Assembly (NCBI RefSeq): GCF_043080095.1
Contig: NZ_JBIBVE010000012.1
Coordinates: 73,367 to 97,366 of the forward strand
Direction: 5' to 3'
DNA length: 24,000 nt
DNA from: Streptomyces sp. NPDC015127
GTDB lineage: Bacteria > Actinomycetota > Actinomycetes > Streptomycetales > Streptomycetaceae
Made by a program: the position numbers and the translations under genes. Shown in pieces: positions 11,227 through 16,636 of this stretch. The notes beneath the pieces are model-generated. The model searched no databases. It saw only the letters and a program-made list of their open reading frames with translations, and was not told where the DNA came from. The number at the start of each line of letters is the position of its first letter. Positions within the stretch are counted from its first letter, which is position 1.

Positions 11227-12354
11227 TCAGTCGCTCAGGCGCTCGCCCGTCGACGTCGAGAAGACGTGGATCTCGCCCGGACGCGGCACGACGTGCAGCT
11301 CGCTGCCCTTGTCCGGCACGCTGCGGCCGCCGACACGGACGACCAGGTCCTTGTGCTCGCCGCCGACCTGGGCGGAGCCGTACACGTAGCCGTCGGCGCC
11401 GAGCTCCTCGACGACGTTCACCGACACGGCGAGACCGGCCGGGGCGTCCTTGGAGAGCGTCTTGGTCTCCGCGCCGCCGTGCTCGACGACGTCGAAGTGC
11501 TCGGGGCGGACGCCGACCGTGACGGTCGTGTCGCCCTTGTCGGCGGCGGCGGACAGGGCCTCGCGGGAGACCGGGACGACGCTGTTGCCGAACTTCACGC
11601 CGCCTTCGGTGATCGGGACCTCGACCAGGTTCATGGCCGGGGAGCCGATGAAGCCGGCGACGAAGAGATTGGCCGGGCGGTCGTACATGTTGCGCGGCGA
11701 GTCGACCTGCTGGAGCAGCCCGTCCTTGAGCACTGCCACACGGTCGCCCATGGTCATGGCCTCGACCTGGTCGTGCGTGACGTACACGGTGGTGATGCCG
11801 AGGCGGCGCTGGAGGCTCGCGATCTGCGTACGCGTCGACACACGGAGCTTGGCGTCGAGGTTCGACAGCGGCTCGTCCATGAGGAAGACCTGCGGCTCAC
11901 GCACGATGGCCCGCCCCATGGCGACACGCTGGCGCTGACCGCCGGAGAGCGCCTTGGGCTTGCGGTCCAGGTAGTCGGTGAGGTCGAGGATCTTCGCGGC
12001 CTCCTCGACCTTCTTGCGGATCTCGCTCTTGTTGACGCCGGCGATCTTGAGGGCGAAGCCCATGTTGTCGGCGACGCTCATGTGCGGGTAGAGCGCGTAG
12101 TTCTGGAACACCATGGCGATGTCCCGGTCCTTGGGCGGCAGGTGCGTGACGTCGCGGTCACCGATCCGGATGGCGCCGCCGTTGACGTCCTCGAGCCCGG
12201 CGAGCATGCGCAGGGAGGTGGACTTGCCACAGCCGGAGGGGCCGACGAGGACGAGGAACTCGCCGTCCTCGGTCTGGATGTCGAGCTGGTCGACGGCGGG
12301 CTTGTCGGAACCCGGATAGATCCGGGTCGCCTTGTCGAACGTGACAGTAGCCAT
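11227..12354 (-). CDS. msiK: Multiple-sugar ABC transporter ATP-binding protein MsiK (MalK/UgpC family)
   Basis: Walker A 'GPSGCGKST', Q-loop, signature 'LSGGQRQRVAMGRA', Walker B 'VFLMDEPLS' and H-loop 'VYVTHDQ', plus a MalK-type regulatory C-terminal domain. It is an orphan ATPase with no adjacent permease genes. An AAGGGAG RBS precedes the start. Confidence 0.9.
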   Translation of the reverse strand: MATVTFDKATRIYPGSDKPAVDQLDIQTEDGEFLVLVGPSGCGKSTSLRMLAGLEDVNGGAIRIGDRDVTHLPPKDRDIAMVFQNYALYPHMSVADNMGFALKIAGVNKSEIRKKVEEAAKILDLTDYLDRKPKALSGGQRQRVAMGRAIVREPQVFLMDEPLSNLDAKLRVSTRTQIASLQRRLGITTVYVTHDQVEAMTMGDRVAVLKDGLLQQVDSPRNMYDRPANLFVAGFIGSPAMNLVEVPITEGGVKFGNSVVPVSREALSAAADKGDTTVTVGVRPEHFDVVEHGGAETKTLSKDAPAGLAVSVNVVEELGADGYVYGSAQVGGEHKDLVVRVGGRSVPDKGSELHVVPRPGEIHVFSTSTGERLSD

Positions 12355-12408
12355 GGTGAATGGCTCCCTTCACCGGCAGGAACGTGCCGGACGATCCGTT
12401 GTAGAGGG

Positions 12409-12439
12409 AGTGGTCCAGTCCACCCCGTGGGTGGACTGG
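12409..12439. promoter_or_regulatory. DasR-box-like (dre-like) operator / palindrome in the msiK leader
   Basis: AGTGGTCCAGTCCACC (12409-12424) matches the dre consensus A(G/C)TGGTCTAGACCA(G/C)T at about 13 of 16 positions. It overlaps an 11-bp perfect inverted repeat, CCAGTCCACCC (12415-12425) / GGGTGGACTGG (12429-12439). Confidence 0.4.
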
Positions 12440-12599: not shown

Positions 12600-12880
12600 C
12601 GGATTGTGAGCTTGCCGCTCCTTGCGCGCATTTGCGCCCTCACGAGCAGCGCTTCCTGCTTCGACGCCCATCGCCGACTGCGCACAGCCCTCAGGGGCCA
12701 CACCAGACCGGTCTTACGCGGGCTCCACAGGCATGACGGCCGACGGCCCGTCGGTCCGTACCTCTCTCCAGCACTCCCTACGCCGTCAGATGGACCTCCG
12801 GCAGCTCCGACGCCCTGATCACGGACGGCATCCCTCTGCCCGGCGGCAGCGCCATCGCCGCCAGCCAGTACAGCCGCATC
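12600..12880 (-). ncRNA. Candidate TnpB omega-RNA (reRNA) region overlapping the tnpB 3' end and right end
   Basis: This rests on family knowledge: omega-RNAs are encoded at the 3' end of tnpB plus the RE. The sequence shows an imperfect hairpin ACGGCCGACGG/CCGTCGGTCCGT (12736-12759) and further GC stems at 12620-12665. The boundaries are guesses. Confidence 0.25.
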
Positions 12881-14175
12881 CCCTCGTCCCGGAGATTCAC
12901 CGCCGCGTTCACGTCCCGGTCGTGCACCACACCGCACTCCTGACAGGTCCACTCCCGCGCCGACACATCGAGGCGAGGGCCCTTCGCGTGGCATGAAGAA
13001 CAACGACGCGTGGACGGGAAGAACCGGTCCACGATCACCAGCGTCCGCCCGTACCACGCGCACTTGTACCGCAGCTGCCGCAGCAGCTCACCCCATGCCG
13101 CATCGGTGATCGACTGGTTCAGTTTCGCCTTCCGTCGCCGTCCCTTGCCCGGCGCTGAGCGCAGGAGATTGGCAACGGGAAGGTCCTCCACCACGAGCAC
13201 TTGGTTCTCGCGCACGAGGCGAGTCGTCAACTGATCCAGCGCGTCCCTGCGGGCATCACTGATGAGCGCGTACAACCTGGCGATACGCTCACGGGCCTTC
13301 CCCCTGTTCTTCGACCCCTTCTCCTTGCGGTGCAGCTCCCGCTGCCGCCGCGCCAGCTCATCCGCGTACTTCCGCAACAGCCTGGGATGCTCCAGCTTCG
13401 AACCGTCGTCCATCGTGACCAACGTGGCCAGACCAAGATCCAGACCGACCGCCTTCGGCTCGCATCCACCCGGCAGAAACACGGCCGGCAGCGGTTCTAT
13501 CCGCTCTTCCACCAGCACCGACAGGAAATAGCGGCCGCCCCGATCACGGGTCACCGTCAGCTTCACCGGCACCTGACCACCGGGCAAGGGACGCGACCAC
13601 CGCACATCCAACGGCTCGCCCTGCTTTGCCAGCGTCACCGACCCCGTCCCCGGCCGCTCCGGATCCTCCACCCACCGGAACCCGGTCCGCACATACGTCG
13701 CCGAATCCCGCGACCGACGCTTCCTCTTCGGCTTCGGGTACCTCGCAGCACCCCGGAAGAACCGCGAAAACGCCCCCTCCAGATGCCGCAACGCCTGCTG
13801 CAGCACTGTCGACGACACCTCCCGCAACCACGACGTCCCCTCCGCCCGACGCCACCCCGTCAATGCCCGACACGTCTCCGCGAACCCGAGCGACACCCGA
13901 TGCTGCTCCCAGGCACGCGCCCGTAGGGCAAGCCCTTCGTTGTAGACCCAGCGGCAGGCGCCGAAGGTCCGCTCGAGCTGCTCGGCCTGGGACGCGGTCG
14001 GATAGAAGCGGAACCGGTAGACACGCTGCTGGGTGCCGGCCTCTTCGGTCCGGCTCTTCAGAGGCGTCGCGACACGGGCGTGATGCTTGCGCCGGTCGGC
14101 GATGCCGAGGTCCTCCCGCTTGACGCGCTTGGCTTCCTCGCCCACGACGCGCACAGGCTGCTCGGATGACCCCAT
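12778..14175 (-). CDS. tnpB: TnpB (OrfB) RNA-guided DNA endonuclease, IS200/IS605-IS607 superfamily; no adjacent tnpA
   Basis: N-terminal 'YRFRFYPTASQAEQL' motif. RuvC-I 'GLDLGL', RuvC-II 'VLVVEDL', RuvC-III 'HDRDVNAAVN' and the Zn finger 'CSSC...CQEC' are all intact. The ATG at 14175 is preceded by AGGGGGG; a GTG at 14178 is one codon upstream. Confidence 0.9.
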   Translation of the reverse strand: MGSSEQPVRVVGEEAKRVKREDLGIADRRKHHARVATPLKSRTEEAGTQQRVYRFRFYPTASQAEQLERTFGACRWVYNEGLALRARAWEQHRVSLGFAETCRALTGWRRAEGTSWLREVSSTVLQQALRHLEGAFSRFFRGAARYPKPKRKRRSRDSATYVRTGFRWVEDPERPGTGSVTLAKQGEPLDVRWSRPLPGGQVPVKLTVTRDRGGRYFLSVLVEERIEPLPAVFLPGGCEPKAVGLDLGLATLVTMDDGSKLEHPRLLRKYADELARRQRELHRKEKGSKNRGKARERIARLYALISDARRDALDQLTTRLVRENQVLVVEDLPVANLLRSAPGKGRRRKAKLNQSITDAAWGELLRQLRYKCAWYGRTLVIVDRFFPSTRRCSSCHAKGPRLDVSAREWTCQECGVVHDRDVNAAVNLRDEGMRLYWLAAMALPPGRGMPSVIRASELPEVHLTA

Positions 14176-14330
14176 CACACCCCCCTGCCGTCCGATAGCC
14201 GGAACAGCACTCCTGTCCGTTCAACGAACGTGTGGGCGGGTGGTTACGGTGGGCGTGAAGTTCTTCGCGGGCGGTTCGTGGTGCTGTGTAGAGTGGGGGA
14301 GCCTCGCGCGCGTGAGTGACCGCGAGCAAT

Positions 14331-14406
14331 GCCGCCTTAGCTCAGTTGGTAGAGCCACTGCCTTGTAATCAGTAGGTCGCCGGTTCGATTCCGGCAGGCG
14401 GCTCCA
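14331..14406 (+). tRNA. tRNA-Thr (anticodon UGU), CCA encoded
   Basis: The cloverleaf folds by hand. Acceptor GCCGCCT/AGGCGGC, D-arm GCTC-AGTTGGTA-GAGC, anticodon arm ACTGC-CTTGTAA-TCAGT (one C:T mismatch at 31:39), T-arm GCCGG-TTCGATT-CCGGC, then discriminator T and CCA. Confidence 0.9.
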
Positions 14407-14414
14407 CGAAACAC

Positions 14415-14456
14415 GTGTCCCGGACCTCTCAGGTCCGGGACACTTGCGTTTTGCGG
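14415..14456 (+). terminator. Rho-independent terminator of tRNA-Thr
   Basis: 12-bp perfect stem: GTGTCCCGGACC (14415-14426) and GGTCCGGGACAC (14432-14443), followed by TTGCGTTTTG. Confidence 0.7.
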
Positions 14457-14494
14457 GGGTGTGTTCGGGGTGTACCTGGGGAGGGGTGCGTCGG

Positions 14495-15754
14495 ATGGGG
14501 CGTCGTTCGGGTGGATTCATCGGAACCTGGGCGGAGGCACAACGGCAGCAGCAGCGGCAGCGCGAAGCGCAGCACTCGGCGGTTGTCCGACAGCAGAGGG
14601 AGCAGGAGCGACAGCAGCGGGCGTACGCGCGGGACATGGCGCGGATGCACCGGGAGCAGCAGGCCGCTTATCGGCGGCAGCGGGAGCAGGATGTTCTGCG
14701 GCGTACGCAGGAGCTGGATACACGGGTGGCTGCCTTGGAAGGGCTGCTCGTCGCTGGGTGTGAGGCGCCTCGGTTCCGTGTTGCGACGTTGCGGCGGACG
14801 GAGGAGGTGGAGGCCTTCGCGCCGGGGCCTTTGGCGCAGCCGGTGAGGATGCCGGATCCGGCCCATTACCAGTCGCGGGGCGGTTGGACGGCTGCTGGGC
14901 GGGCGCAGGCGGAGCAGGAGGCGCGGGCGCGTTTCGAGCGGGACTGGTATGCGGCGCAGGCGGCCGAGGAGAGGCGTCGGCAGGATCTGGCGGCGTATCG
15001 GCAGCAGTACGACGACTGGGCGCGTGCGCGGCTGGCGGAGATCCGGGAGCACAACGCCGGAATCGAGGGTATGGCCCGTGCTTTGCGTGCGAGTGAGCCG
15101 GAGACGGTGGTGGAGTACTTCTCGGCTGCTCTGTATGCGTCGACGGCTTGGCCGGAGGGGTTTCCGCGGCAGGTGTCGGCGGCGTACGACCGGGCGGCGC
15201 GGCAACTCGTGCTCGATTGGGAGCTGCCCGGCTACGAGGTTGTTCCTGAGGCGAAGGGCGTGCGTTATCTGGTCGGGACGGACCAGGAGAAGGAGATCGC
15301 CCGGCCGGCGGCCCAGCGGAGGGCACTGTACCGGGACGTTCTTGCGCAGAGTGTGTTGCTGGCGTTGCGGGAGTTGTTTGCGGCGGATGAATGCGAAGTG
15401 CTGCGTTCTGTGGCGCTGAATGGCTTCGTGGATGACGTGGATCCGGCGACGGGCCGGCCGTCGCGGGTGGTTCTGGCGTCGGTGATGGTGGATCGCGCGG
15501 AGTTCGAAGCGGTGCATTTGGAGCTGGTCGGTGCGGTGGAGTGTCTGACCGGGGGGCTTCGGGGGCAGTTGTCGGCGCGTCCTGATCAGCGGGTCGCGGT
15601 GCGGCCGGGCCGCGTTCCGGAGCAGGTGGGTTCGGGGGGGGGGGGGGGGGTTCCCGCGGGAGCGGCGGTGAACCGGACCTGCTGGCGATGGATCCGATCG
15701 AGTTCGAGGGCTTGGTGGCGGAGCTGTTCCGCGCGCGTGGGTTTCAGGCGATGA
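14495..15754 (+). CDS. N-terminal fragment of a split restriction-endonuclease-like protein (Q/R-rich coiled coil plus an uncharacterised domain); the frame is disrupted at the poly(G) tract
   Basis: ATG at 14495 with a GGGAGGGG RBS. 'AEAQRQQQRQREAQ...REQERQQRAYARD' is coiled-coil-like. Coding GC3 continues up to the G17 run at 15634-15650. After the run this frame reads Arg/Trp/Cys-rich nonsense until the stop at 15754. Confidence 0.6.
   Translation: MGRRSGGFIGTWAEAQRQQQRQREAQHSAVVRQQREQERQQRAYARDMARMHREQQAAYRRQREQDVLRRTQELDTRVAALEGLLVAGCEAPRFRVATLRRTEEVEAFAPGPLAQPVRMPDPAHYQSRGGWTAAGRAQAEQEARARFERDWYAAQAAEERRRQDLAAYRQQYDDWARARLAEIREHNAGIEGMARALRASEPETVVEYFSAALYASTAWPEGFPRQVSAAYDRAARQLVLDWELPGYEVVPEAKGVRYLVGTDQEKEIARPAAQRRALYRDVLAQSVLLALRELFAADECEVLRSVALNGFVDDVDPATGRPSRVVLASVMVDRAEFEAVHLELVGAVECLTGGLRGQLSARPDQRVAVRPGRVPEQVGSGGGGGVPAGAAVNRTCWRWIRSSSRAWWRSCSARVGFRR
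15634..15650 (+). repeat. Homopolymeric G17 tract (encodes a poly-Gly linker and is the frameshift site)
   Basis: Direct count gives 17 consecutive G at 15634-15650. I saw no other run longer than about 7 nt in this window. Confidence 0.95.
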
Positions 15755-16593
15755 CAACGCAGCGGTCGAACGACGGTGGGGTGGATGTGGATGCGGTCGA
15801 TCCTGATCCGATCAGCGGCGGGAAGATCGTTGTGCAGGTGAAGCGCTACCGTGGCACGGTTCCGGTGGCTGCGGTGCGGGAGTTGTTCGGCACTGTTCAG
15901 GCGACGGGTGCCAACAAGGGTGTTCTGGTGACTACGTCGGGTTTCGGTCCGGGTGCGTACACCTTTGCCAATGGCAAGCCTTTGACGCTCGTGTCGGGGA
16001 CGGAACTGGTTGATCTGCTGCACCGGCACGGGCTGCGTGGGCGTCTCGGTGACGGGGAGGCGGTCTCGGTTCCTGCGTCGGCTGCGGACGAGGTTCCAGG
16101 CAGTGATCACGACTACAGCGTGCTCGGGATGTCGTGGTCGGGCTCGGTGGCTCTGGATGTCTGTGCGTTGGTGTGCGCGGGGAACAGGGTGCTCGGCGAC
16201 GAGTTCTTCGTTTTCTTCAACAACGAGGCGACGCCGGACGGCTCTGTGCGCATGTTGGGTTCGTTTGCCGGGGATCGGACGGCGATTCGGGTGGCGTTCG
16301 ATGCGTTGCCGGAGGGGGCGGATCGACTGGTGCTGGTGGCGGCGGTCGATCCGGAGGTGAATCCGGATGCTGATCTCTCGACATTCGCGGATGCGTCGAT
16401 CCGGCTCCGGGATGCGTCGGGCGTGGAGCTGGACAGGTTGGTCGTGTCGGACGGTCGGGACAGTGAGACGGCGCTGGTCCTGGGATCGTTCCGGCGGCGT
16501 TCCAGCGGAGACTGGGAGTTCGTGCTGGGCGGCAAGGGCTACCGGGGTGGTTTGGAGGAGCTGGTGGGGGATTTCGGGATCGCGGTGGAGTAA
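15688..16593 (+). CDS. C-terminal fragment: Mrr_cat-type restriction endonuclease domain fused to a TerD-like domain
   Basis: Mrr_cat: 'PIEFEGLVAELFRARGF...NDGGVDVDAV...KIVVQVKRYRGTVPVAAVRELFG...GANKGVLVTTSGF' (a D...(Q)VK PD-(D/E)xK core). TerD-like: 'ALDVCALV...DEFFVFFNNEATPDGSVRM...LVLVAAV...ETALVLGSFRRRSSGDWEFVLGGKGYRGGLEELVGDFGI'. This frame is open back to the G-tract (SRGSGGEPDLLAMDP...). Confidence 0.7.
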   Translation: MDPIEFEGLVAELFRARGFQAMTTQRSNDGGVDVDAVDPDPISGGKIVVQVKRYRGTVPVAAVRELFGTVQATGANKGVLVTTSGFGPGAYTFANGKPLTLVSGTELVDLLHRHGLRGRLGDGEAVSVPASAADEVPGSDHDYSVLGMSWSGSVALDVCALVCAGNRVLGDEFFVFFNNEATPDGSVRMLGSFAGDRTAIRVAFDALPEGADRLVLVAAVDPEVNPDADLSTFADASIRLRDASGVELDRLVVSDGRDSETALVLGSFRRRSSGDWEFVLGGKGYRGGLEELVGDFGIAVE

Positions 16594-16600
16594 GCCGACT

Positions 16601-16636
16601 GCCCGGGCCGACGTGCTGTCGGCCCGGGCGCTTTTT
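16601..16636 (+). terminator. Rho-independent terminator after the Mrr_cat-TerD gene
   Basis: 12-bp perfect stem: GCCCGGGCCGAC (16601-16612) and GTCGGCCCGGGC (16618-16629), followed by GCTTTTT. Confidence 0.75.

Follow-up and report, generated by a model that had tools for sequence, protein, structure and literature searches.

We have analysed a locus at positions 14495-16593 of a 24,000-nucleotide stretch of DNA from Streptomyces sp. NPDC015127 (contig NZ_JBIBVE010000012.1); the whole stretch is called the window below, and all coordinates refer to it unless a different locus is named. The locus is probably a single gene that encodes a solitary Mrr-family restriction endonuclease, without a partner methyltransferase, in which a TerD-like tail serves as a regulatory or adaptor module. 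We call the enzyme Type IV-like because no methyltransferase accompanies the gene. The architecture is common and already annotated in databases, its chromosomal setting here is an ordinary one, and the gene is interrupted in this copy.

A four-part protein across two reading frames

Two open reading frames (ORFs) on the forward strand cover the locus. ORF A (14444/14495..15754, frame 2) has 419 amino acids (aa) and encodes a coiled coil and a middle domain, and ORF B (15688..16593, frame 1) has 301 aa from the ATG at 15688 and encodes an Mrr_cat nuclease and a TerD domain. The two overlap by 67 nucleotides (nt), and between them there is a frameshift within a run of 17 G at 15634-15650. Adding one G gives a stop-free ORF of 699 aa, from the ATG at 14495 to the TAA at 16593, and removing two gives 698 aa. 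A single protein of about 699 aa, obtained by adding a G in the tract, had been proposed in a sequence-only reading of this DNA, and the stop-free ORF confirms it. Homologues begin with MGRRSGG or MSRRSGG, the same start as the window ORF from ATG 14495. The parts of the gene are listed here, with amino acid positions in the repaired protein.

14480..14484, + strand: GGAGG ribosome-binding site, 10 nt 5' of ATG 14495, read from the sequence
14495..15088, + strand: Q/R-rich N-terminal region, aa 1-198; AlphaFold2 predicted local distance difference test (pLDDT) 92-98; within the match to PADLOC PDLC03663
15089..15633, + strand: middle alpha/beta domain, aa 199-380; AlphaFold2 pLDDT 96; order of elements a-bbbb-a-bb-aa
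15634..15650, + strand: 17-G homopolymer in a disordered inter-domain linker, the source of the frameshift; the frame would be kept with 18 G or 15 G
15682..16020, + strand: Mrr_cat PD-(D/E)xK nuclease, aa 397-509, frame 1; Pfam, PADLOC, AlphaFold2, Foldseek
16114..16593, + strand: TerD-like beta-sandwich, aa 541-699, and the stop codon; Pfam, AlphaFold2, Foldseek, alignments

An AlphaFold2 model of the repaired protein was built from an alignment of 80 sequences and has a mean pLDDT of 91.3. According to the model, two helices (9-82 and 133-198) are followed by an alpha/beta domain (199-380), a disordered linker (383-391) that coincides with the site of the G run and its poly-Gly stretch, the nuclease (396-512), a second disordered segment (521-537) and a beta-sandwich (541-699). 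Pfam, AlphaFold2 and Foldseek together uphold the four parts named in the sequence-only reading, i.e. a coiled coil, a globular region, an Mrr_cat core and a TerD-like domain. Both N-terminal helices are very long in the model, and a less regular segment connects them; the region is probably a coiled-coil hairpin that acts as a dimerisation or spacer arm.

The Mrr_cat core that had been claimed is found by Pfam (PF04471) with an E-value of 5.3e-33 and 114 bits against a cut-off of 21, over positions 2-115 of the 115 in the profile, and both the fold and the catalytic residues are present. The inactive variant NA-iREase1 is matched far more weakly, at 44.5 bits. Across 80 family members E405, D427, D431 and Q448 never vary, and K450 is conserved in at least 90%. 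Judged from the alignment, the E..D..QxK catalytic set of Mrr-type enzymes, as this motif is given in PMC3874153, is intact. In the AlphaFold2 model the a-bbb-a-b core is present, formed by helix 401-414, strands 418-421, 432-436 and 443-450, helix 458-471 and strand 475-480.

The best matches of the nuclease among solved structures are the nuclease domains of MspJI and AspBHI (Type IIM/IV; 4F0P, 4OC8), with Foldseek E-values of 2.5e-7 to 5e-6. These enzymes share their layout with the window protein, a reader domain followed by Mrr_cat, if the middle domain here has the reader role that we infer for it. However, the reader of MspJI and AspBHI is an SRA-like base-flipping domain, and the middle domain of the window protein has no significant similarity to it or to any PDB entry.

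The globular region of about 170 aa had been described as not assignable, and this is borne out by Pfam, PHROGs, the PDB profile, Foldseek and hhalign. No match to the middle domain was found in Pfam, NCBIfam, PHROGs or the PDB sequence profile. Foldseek against BFVD gave one weak match, to an uncharacterised phage protein, with a template modelling score (TM) of 0.34, and comparison by hhalign with the profiles of Mrr_cat and TerD gave a probability below 1%. The domain is kept across the wider family that has no TerD part, with P251, Y279, N309, G320 and C350 near-invariant, and no conserved acidic/lysine catalytic set was seen among the family sequences. It may be a diverged PD-(D/E)xK fold.

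The C-terminal beta-sandwich is TerD-like, as proposed, by both Pfam and Foldseek. TerD (PF02342) is matched at aa 550-694 with an E-value of 1.3e-22 and 80.6 bits against a cut-off of 25.3. Foldseek matches 3IBZ (E-value 7e-13, TM 0.72) and 2KXT. The fold is the same as in the TerD proteins of Klebsiella (2KXT) and S. coelicolor (3IBZ, and SCO6318, 2QZ7), with TM of 0.65-0.72, and these proteins and the window domain both keep the FxFFNN..PDGSV and the C-terminal GxGY.GGL motifs; the window domain retains FVFFNN..TPDGSV and GDWEF..GGKGY. Unlike classical TerD, the window domain has no Ca2+ loop, reads ALD for DLD, is fused to a nuclease and lies outside a ter operon. Neither the window nor the syntenic loci examined have other Ter genes.

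Loss of the Ca2+ loop had been suggested from the sequence, and the structure alignment agrees with it. The segment 'HTGDNITGEGEGDDE' of 3IBZ aligns with 'R-----MLGSFAGDRT' of the window, a deletion of five residues, and GDDE is replaced by GDRT in addition to the change of DLD. None of the 32 aligned members of the fusion family has the canonical loop GDNxTGEGxGDDE, and the bipartite Ca2+ site of the TerD family, formed by this loop and DxD, was not found in the window protein. This loss makes a regulatory or adaptor role likelier than calcium sensing.

Stand-alone TerD-like proteins are also encoded by the Lysinibacillus phages OP628075.1 and OP628076.1 (phrog_5698), and these are about 30% identical to the TerD domain of the window.

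The 17-G run and the state of this copy

The window has a G+C content of 70.8%, and the 17-G run is its sole homopolymer of eight or more bases in 24 kb. At this position relatives read GGGGTGGTG, and the closest of them (91% and 89% protein identity) read GGGGTGGTGTCGCA, which encodes GSGVVSHGGG(D/E)EP. Between fixed flanks the window is 8 nt longer, 59 vs 51 nt, with the repaired reading GSGGGGGGSRGSGGEP, and the sequence just 3' of the run has diverged as well (SRGSGG vs SHGGG(D/E)). By this comparison, the expansion of the run is specific to the lineage of the window, and its length would need one more base, or two fewer, to be in frame.

We compared the selection on the two sides of the run. 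When the window gene is compared with its closest intact orthologue, the ratio of nonsynonymous to synonymous substitution rates (dN/dS) is 0.137 for the part upstream of the run and 0.104 for the part downstream of it; two intact orthologues compared with each other give 0.106. Besides the G run, neither a second lesion nor relaxed selection was detected in this copy. With no other lesion, and with dN/dS of about 0.1 on both sides, the break must be recent, reversible or not real.

It is quite possible that the frameshift is an artefact, in which case the true run would have 18 (or 15) G and the full protein of 699 aa would be made. Sequencing platforms commonly miscount long homopolymers, and both the lone lesion and the low dN/dS on its two sides agree with such an error. 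The linker that contains the run is, moreover, disordered and would tolerate additional glycines. In 1.65 Mb of related draft assemblies there are 12 runs of G or C of ten or more bases, mostly clustered in two loci (L050 17287-17447; L054 1-45 and 12831-13029; G17, C22, C16, C25 and others), and these clusters look like sequencing or assembly artefacts; no run of this length was found in any homologous gene of these assemblies. However, the 8-nt excess together with the diverged downstream sequence points to a real G-rich expansion, of which the exact length alone is doubtful. The split products were not found in other assemblies, hence there is no independent copy for comparison.

That the gene is a decaying pseudogene or a split gene, with ORF A and ORF B made separately or not at all, is a more doubtful alternative. 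Some copies of the gene do decay. A scan with one genome per species recovered 51 Streptomyces loci, and in four of these (L015; L051; L076, S. purpureus JCM 3172; L078, S. ficellus AS11) the gene is clearly degraded. The lesions are independent: one copy has a frameshift near aa 150, another has lost about aa 317-396 in frame, a third carries multiple frameshifts and has lost its N-terminal part, and the last has a large deletion in its interior. Three of these degraded copies occupy the same site as in the window, between msiK and a DAO-type oxidase gene. A split is also suggested by the position of the break, exactly between domains, and by the make-up of ORF B, which is that of a natural Mrr_cat+TerD protein of 360 aa in Kitasatospora. 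Against this alternative stand the single lesion and the unrelaxed selection described above, the 67-nt overlap of the two ORFs, and the start of a stand-alone ORF B (ATG 15688, M399), before which no obvious ribosome-binding site is seen in the sequence.

A third explanation is that the run is a genuine slippage-prone tract, by which phase variation switches the nuclease on and off. Phase-variable poly-G restriction genes occur in Neisseria, Haemophilus, Helicobacter and Campylobacter, and as in the window a long G run in a restriction-type ORF sets the frame by its length. The tract here lies in a restriction-type coding region, within a linker in which a gain or loss of 3 nt would be neutral and that of 1 nt would turn the gene off; it is the only long homopolymer of the window and the lesion is recent. 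However, in contrast to the known phase-variable genes, the tract is missing at this position in all the relatives examined, so that it is not a conserved regulatory device, and a single sequence cannot reveal a length polymorphism. We know of no description of homopolymer phase variation in Streptomyces, and we regard this explanation as highly improbable. Programmed frameshifting was set aside, since in relatives a single frame encodes the protein and the tract is missing.

Distribution and genomic setting of the family

The fusion had been described as unusual, and this did not hold. A search of 5.8 billion proteins gave at least 120 matches, and the best 120 are all Streptomyces proteins of 665-756 aa and 66-91% identity, nearly all matched over the full length and all with Mrr_cat and TerD. 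Almost all of these listed matches bear the name 'restriction endonuclease'. One of them is the orthologue of S. venezuelae ATCC 10712 (CCA57301.1, UniProt F2RFZ9), which is 72% identical, and the frame is uninterrupted in 47 of the 51 species-representative loci. A PADLOC model exists as well: PDLC03663 mREase_IV ('Type IV methyl-directed restriction enzyme') matches aa 13-512 at positions 21-526 of 544 in the profile (E-value 1.6e-53). A further claim, that no single polypeptide joining Mrr and TerD has been characterised, agrees with the literature searched, in which we found no characterised Mrr_cat-TerD fusion (the Ter comparative-genomics paper of Anantharaman 2012 and the Tdd8 paper of Daigle 2015 lie outside this scope).

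The wider family is larger and mostly without TerD. HMMER found 772 proteins at an E-value of 1e-30 or lower among 1.84 billion representatives, and among the 150 matches listed most have 500-600 aa, cover about aa 10-515 and have no TerD. Many of the listed relatives of this mREase_IV family share the coiled coil, the middle domain and Mrr_cat, and some are on plasmids or integrative elements. Proteins of this family stop after the nuclease, and in the lineage of the window some 30 aa of linker and a TerD domain of roughly 160 aa follow it. The name of the family comes from annotation. Relatives carried by small plasmids of Methylobacterium, Agrobacterium, Xanthomonas and Clostridium match only over about aa 170-503, the middle domain and the nuclease. 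Going by these alignments, the core of the family consists of the middle domain and Mrr_cat, usually preceded by the coiled coil, and TerD was added in the Streptomycetaceae.

A short form of 360-390 aa, with Mrr_cat and TerD alone and 45-48% identical, is found at about 25 Kitasatospora-type loci (e.g. L065, 9857-10939; the other loci are among L054-L075, L077 and L079). Its GC3 (G+C at third codon positions) of 0.95 is native-like, and its metabolic neighbourhood is partly conserved. At many of these loci a separate TerD gene lies on the opposite strand, 3-5 kb upstream. The persistence of the Mrr_cat+TerD pair alone in Kitasatospora suggests that both domains work together.

In the window, the genes are in the order SpoU methylase, DoxX, nucleotidyl transferase, a small hypothetical protein, msiK, TnpB, tRNA-Thr, the nuclease gene, a DAO-type FAD oxidase, APH, GNAT, ADH and an FAD oxidoreductase. 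The closest neighbours and the signals that flank the nuclease gene are the following.

11227-12354, - strand: msiK-type ABC ATPase gene, a neighbour
12358-12416, - strand: msiK RNA motif RF01747 (Rfam, 61 bits), which confirms the identity of the msiK neighbour
12778..14178, - strand: TnpB, 466 aa, complete, with HTH_OrfB_IS605, OrfB_IS605 and Cas12f-like TNB domains
14331..14406, + strand: tRNA-Thr, anticodon TGT (ARAGORN, Rfam RF00005), directly upstream; context, not part of the gene
14415..14443, both strands: terminator-like hairpin 3' of tRNA-Thr with a 13-bp stem, inverted repeat I11
16600..16630, + strand: intrinsic-terminator-like hairpin 3' of the stop codon, 14 pairs (11 G-C), followed by CTTTTTC

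The hairpin and CTTTTTC at 16600-16630 follow the stop codon directly, and the nuclease gene is therefore apparently a compact monocistronic unit. On its 5' side, the hairpin at 14415-14443 scores as a terminator on either strand, which leaves about 50 nt for a promoter before the ATG at 14495; no sigma-70-like promoter was found in these 50 nt.

This gene order is common to about 22 related loci, and a strain labelled S. griseus keeps it and continues into carD-ispDF-cysS. In most loci with the msiK-DAO setting the tRNA-Thr lies about 90-330 nt 5' of the nuclease gene. The adjacency of a tRNA and a TnpB, which had been noted before, stands. The 'typical defence-island context' that had been drawn from it does not, as the flanks are housekeeping or metabolic genes in an order common to about 22 loci, and the setting of the window is not a defence island. 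TnpB, between msiK and tRNA-Thr, is the only mobile-element neighbour in the window, with no adjoining TnpA ORF seen. It is present in few of the related loci (as a fragment in L001, and in L002/L005, L007, L011 and L078) and is a sporadic insertion. A mini-island at the tRNA-Thr was considered and rejected: a direct repeat of the tRNA 3' end, of the att type, was sought downstream of the gene and none was found.

Elsewhere the gene is found in other places. In about 29 other Streptomyces species it is at unrelated sites, and neighbours are common to just 1-3 of the 29 loci, so a second conserved context outside the msiK-DAO setting was rejected. A candidate orthologue in S. coelicolor, chosen by synteny (SCO4241-4243), was wrong, as this region holds a proteinase and a contractile-injection cluster. 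In a strain labelled S. venezuelae (L082, GCA_038116675.1, 371-4046) the orthologue is preceded, at a distance of a few kb, by SpdB, DUF2637, an FtsK/SpoIIIE-type TraB and GntR, genes typical of an actinomycete integrative conjugative element (AICE). They sit where the other syntenic loci have msiK and tRNA-Thr, and the region on this side of the gene thus looks like an integration hot spot.

Full-length TerD fusions also occur on large linear plasmids. On the 790-kb linear plasmid of Streptomyces sp. NBC_01724 (L091, 3883-5616 and 10508-11788) the orthologue lies between AIPR (abortive infection, Abi) and PIN-domain genes, a few kb from which there are two further transposase genes, one of them IS630, and this is the clearest defence-island-like context among the family loci examined. 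Relatives without TerD adjoin a relaxase and an integrase, or lie in an island of toxin-antitoxin, IS91 and HNH genes, and some are on small plasmids.

The GC3 of the nuclease gene, 0.77-0.78, is the lowest in the window, compared with 0.84-0.97 for most neighbours. No DNA methyltransferase was found within about 7-14 kb of the gene in the window, in the loci of relatives or in the plasmid-borne relatives examined; the SpoU neighbour belongs to an RNA methylase family. The low GC3, the varied sites, the plasmid copies, the lack of a methyltransferase and the sporadic decay mark the gene as accessory. Its foreign-like GC3, its many genomic sites and its occasional decay are, further, typical of accessory defence genes. 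All this fits a solitary defence-type nuclease that has become fixed beside the tRNA-Thr in a single large clade of Streptomyces.

Function and its meaning for Streptomyces

As a solitary restriction endonuclease the protein could work as follows. The coiled coil would pair two nuclease domains, and the middle domain would pick the DNA target, possibly modified or foreign DNA. The Mrr_cat domain, whose catalytic residues are intact, would then cut the DNA, and such cleavage would be a barrier to foreign DNA. Without its Ca2+ loop, the TerD domain is most likely a regulatory or adaptor module that binds a ligand or a partner protein. In the window the gene appears to be interrupted solely at the expanded 17-G run in the linker, by a very recent lesion or by an error in homopolymer length, and the rest looks functional.

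The nearest experimentally examined enzyme of Streptomyces is ScoA3Mrr (SCO4213) of S. coelicolor, which restricts m6A-methylated DNA in vivo (PMC3874153, Table 1). Like EcoKMrr, it has the same Mrr_cat PD-(D/E)xK domain as the window protein, in the D...QxK variant, and is solitary without a methyltransferase. However, EcoKMrr has an N-terminal Mrr_N winged helix, where the window protein has a coiled coil and an unassigned domain, with TerD after the nuclease. SCO4213 lies in a four-gene islet of 3.8 kb, which suggests a smaller protein.

Several points weigh against this restriction reading. The 'Type IV' label is solely the name of a database model, and no experimentally tested member of the family was found in the literature searched. 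A recognised reader of modified bases (Mrr_N, SRA, PUA/EVE, DUF3427 or SBD) was not found, as Pfam at E-values up to 1 gives Mrr_cat, NA-iREase1 and TerD only, and for the middle domain Foldseek against PDB gave a best E-value of 0.02, i.e. no significant neighbour. Whether the gene is on or off depends on a run whose length is known from one assembled sequence. Finally, the fixed msiK-DAO position in many species and the strong purifying selection also fit a cellular role outside defence.

Such a role could be that of a chromosomal nuclease in DNA damage or stress, in developmental DNA degradation, or in a link to the TerD paralogues of Streptomyces. The position within a housekeeping block, in about 22 loci and in the S. 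griseus-labelled strain, agrees with it. A passage of PMC11344345 cites work that ties the S. coelicolor TerD proteins (Tdd8) to calcium homeostasis and development, and E. coli Mrr fires under high pressure without foreign methylation (PMC3874153). On the other side stand the atypical GC3, the many unrelated genomic positions, the plasmid copies that adjoin Abi, PIN and insertion sequence genes, the sporadic loss, and the relatives without TerD on mobile elements. We find a cellular role quite unlikely.

The TerD tail also allows a one-protein 'sense-and-cut' module of abortive infection, in which the TerD-like domain would bind a small molecule, e.g. a nucleotide-derived or stress metabolite, or sense an infection cue and free Mrr_cat for indiscriminate degradation of DNA. 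TerD domains have been proposed to bind specialised nucleotide derivatives, according to a passage of PMC7159879 that cites Anantharaman 2012. PMC3710099 describes a 'TerD-dependent anti-phage system' with a link to a McrBC-like system. In Abi-type proteins, fusions of Mrr-type nuclease domains to varied sensor-like N-terminal modules are recurrent. Loss of the Ca2+ loop with the remaining TerD fold kept suggests a changed ligand, and the minimal Mrr_cat+TerD unit conserved in Kitasatospora agrees with a joint function.

Among the weaker Foldseek matches of the nuclease domain are the ligand-gated PD-(D/E)xK effectors Can2 and Cdn1. By analogy, rather than by membership, the protein may be compared with the CARF-nuclease Can2, the SAVED-nuclease Cap4 and Cdn1, each with a sensor and a restriction-fold nuclease in one chain. 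Unlike these, the window protein has no CARF or SAVED domain, and no cyclase or CRISPR locus is nearby. A cyclase or other signal-generating enzyme was likewise not found in the window or the related loci examined, and most listed family members function without TerD, which makes TerD an add-on and not the core sensor. We consider this sense-and-cut mechanism unlikely. The stronger version of it, a calcium-free TerD-like domain that acts as a ligand or stress sensor gating the Mrr-type nuclease, in a widespread immunity or suicide module of the Streptomycetaceae that is toggled here by 18/17-G slippage, is more unlikely still. A solitary Mrr-family restriction endonuclease with a regulatory or adaptor TerD tail remains the reading that we prefer.

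The gene in the window is itself an ordinary member of its family with a single frameshift, which may be a sequencing error. Toggling of the tract, if true, would give Streptomyces its first restriction-type gene with a homopolymer phase switch, and the sensor-gated reading, if true, would provide the first setting where a TerD input can be read directly as DNA cleavage. The family is large and labelled as Type IV restriction enzymes, its presumed recognition domain has no match among solved structures (Foldseek vs PDB), and it bears on the difficulty of transforming many Streptomyces strains. In this family TerD is wired to a nuclease, conserved in very many Streptomyces species and in a minimal form in Kitasatospora, and cleavage would offer a simple read-out for TerD.

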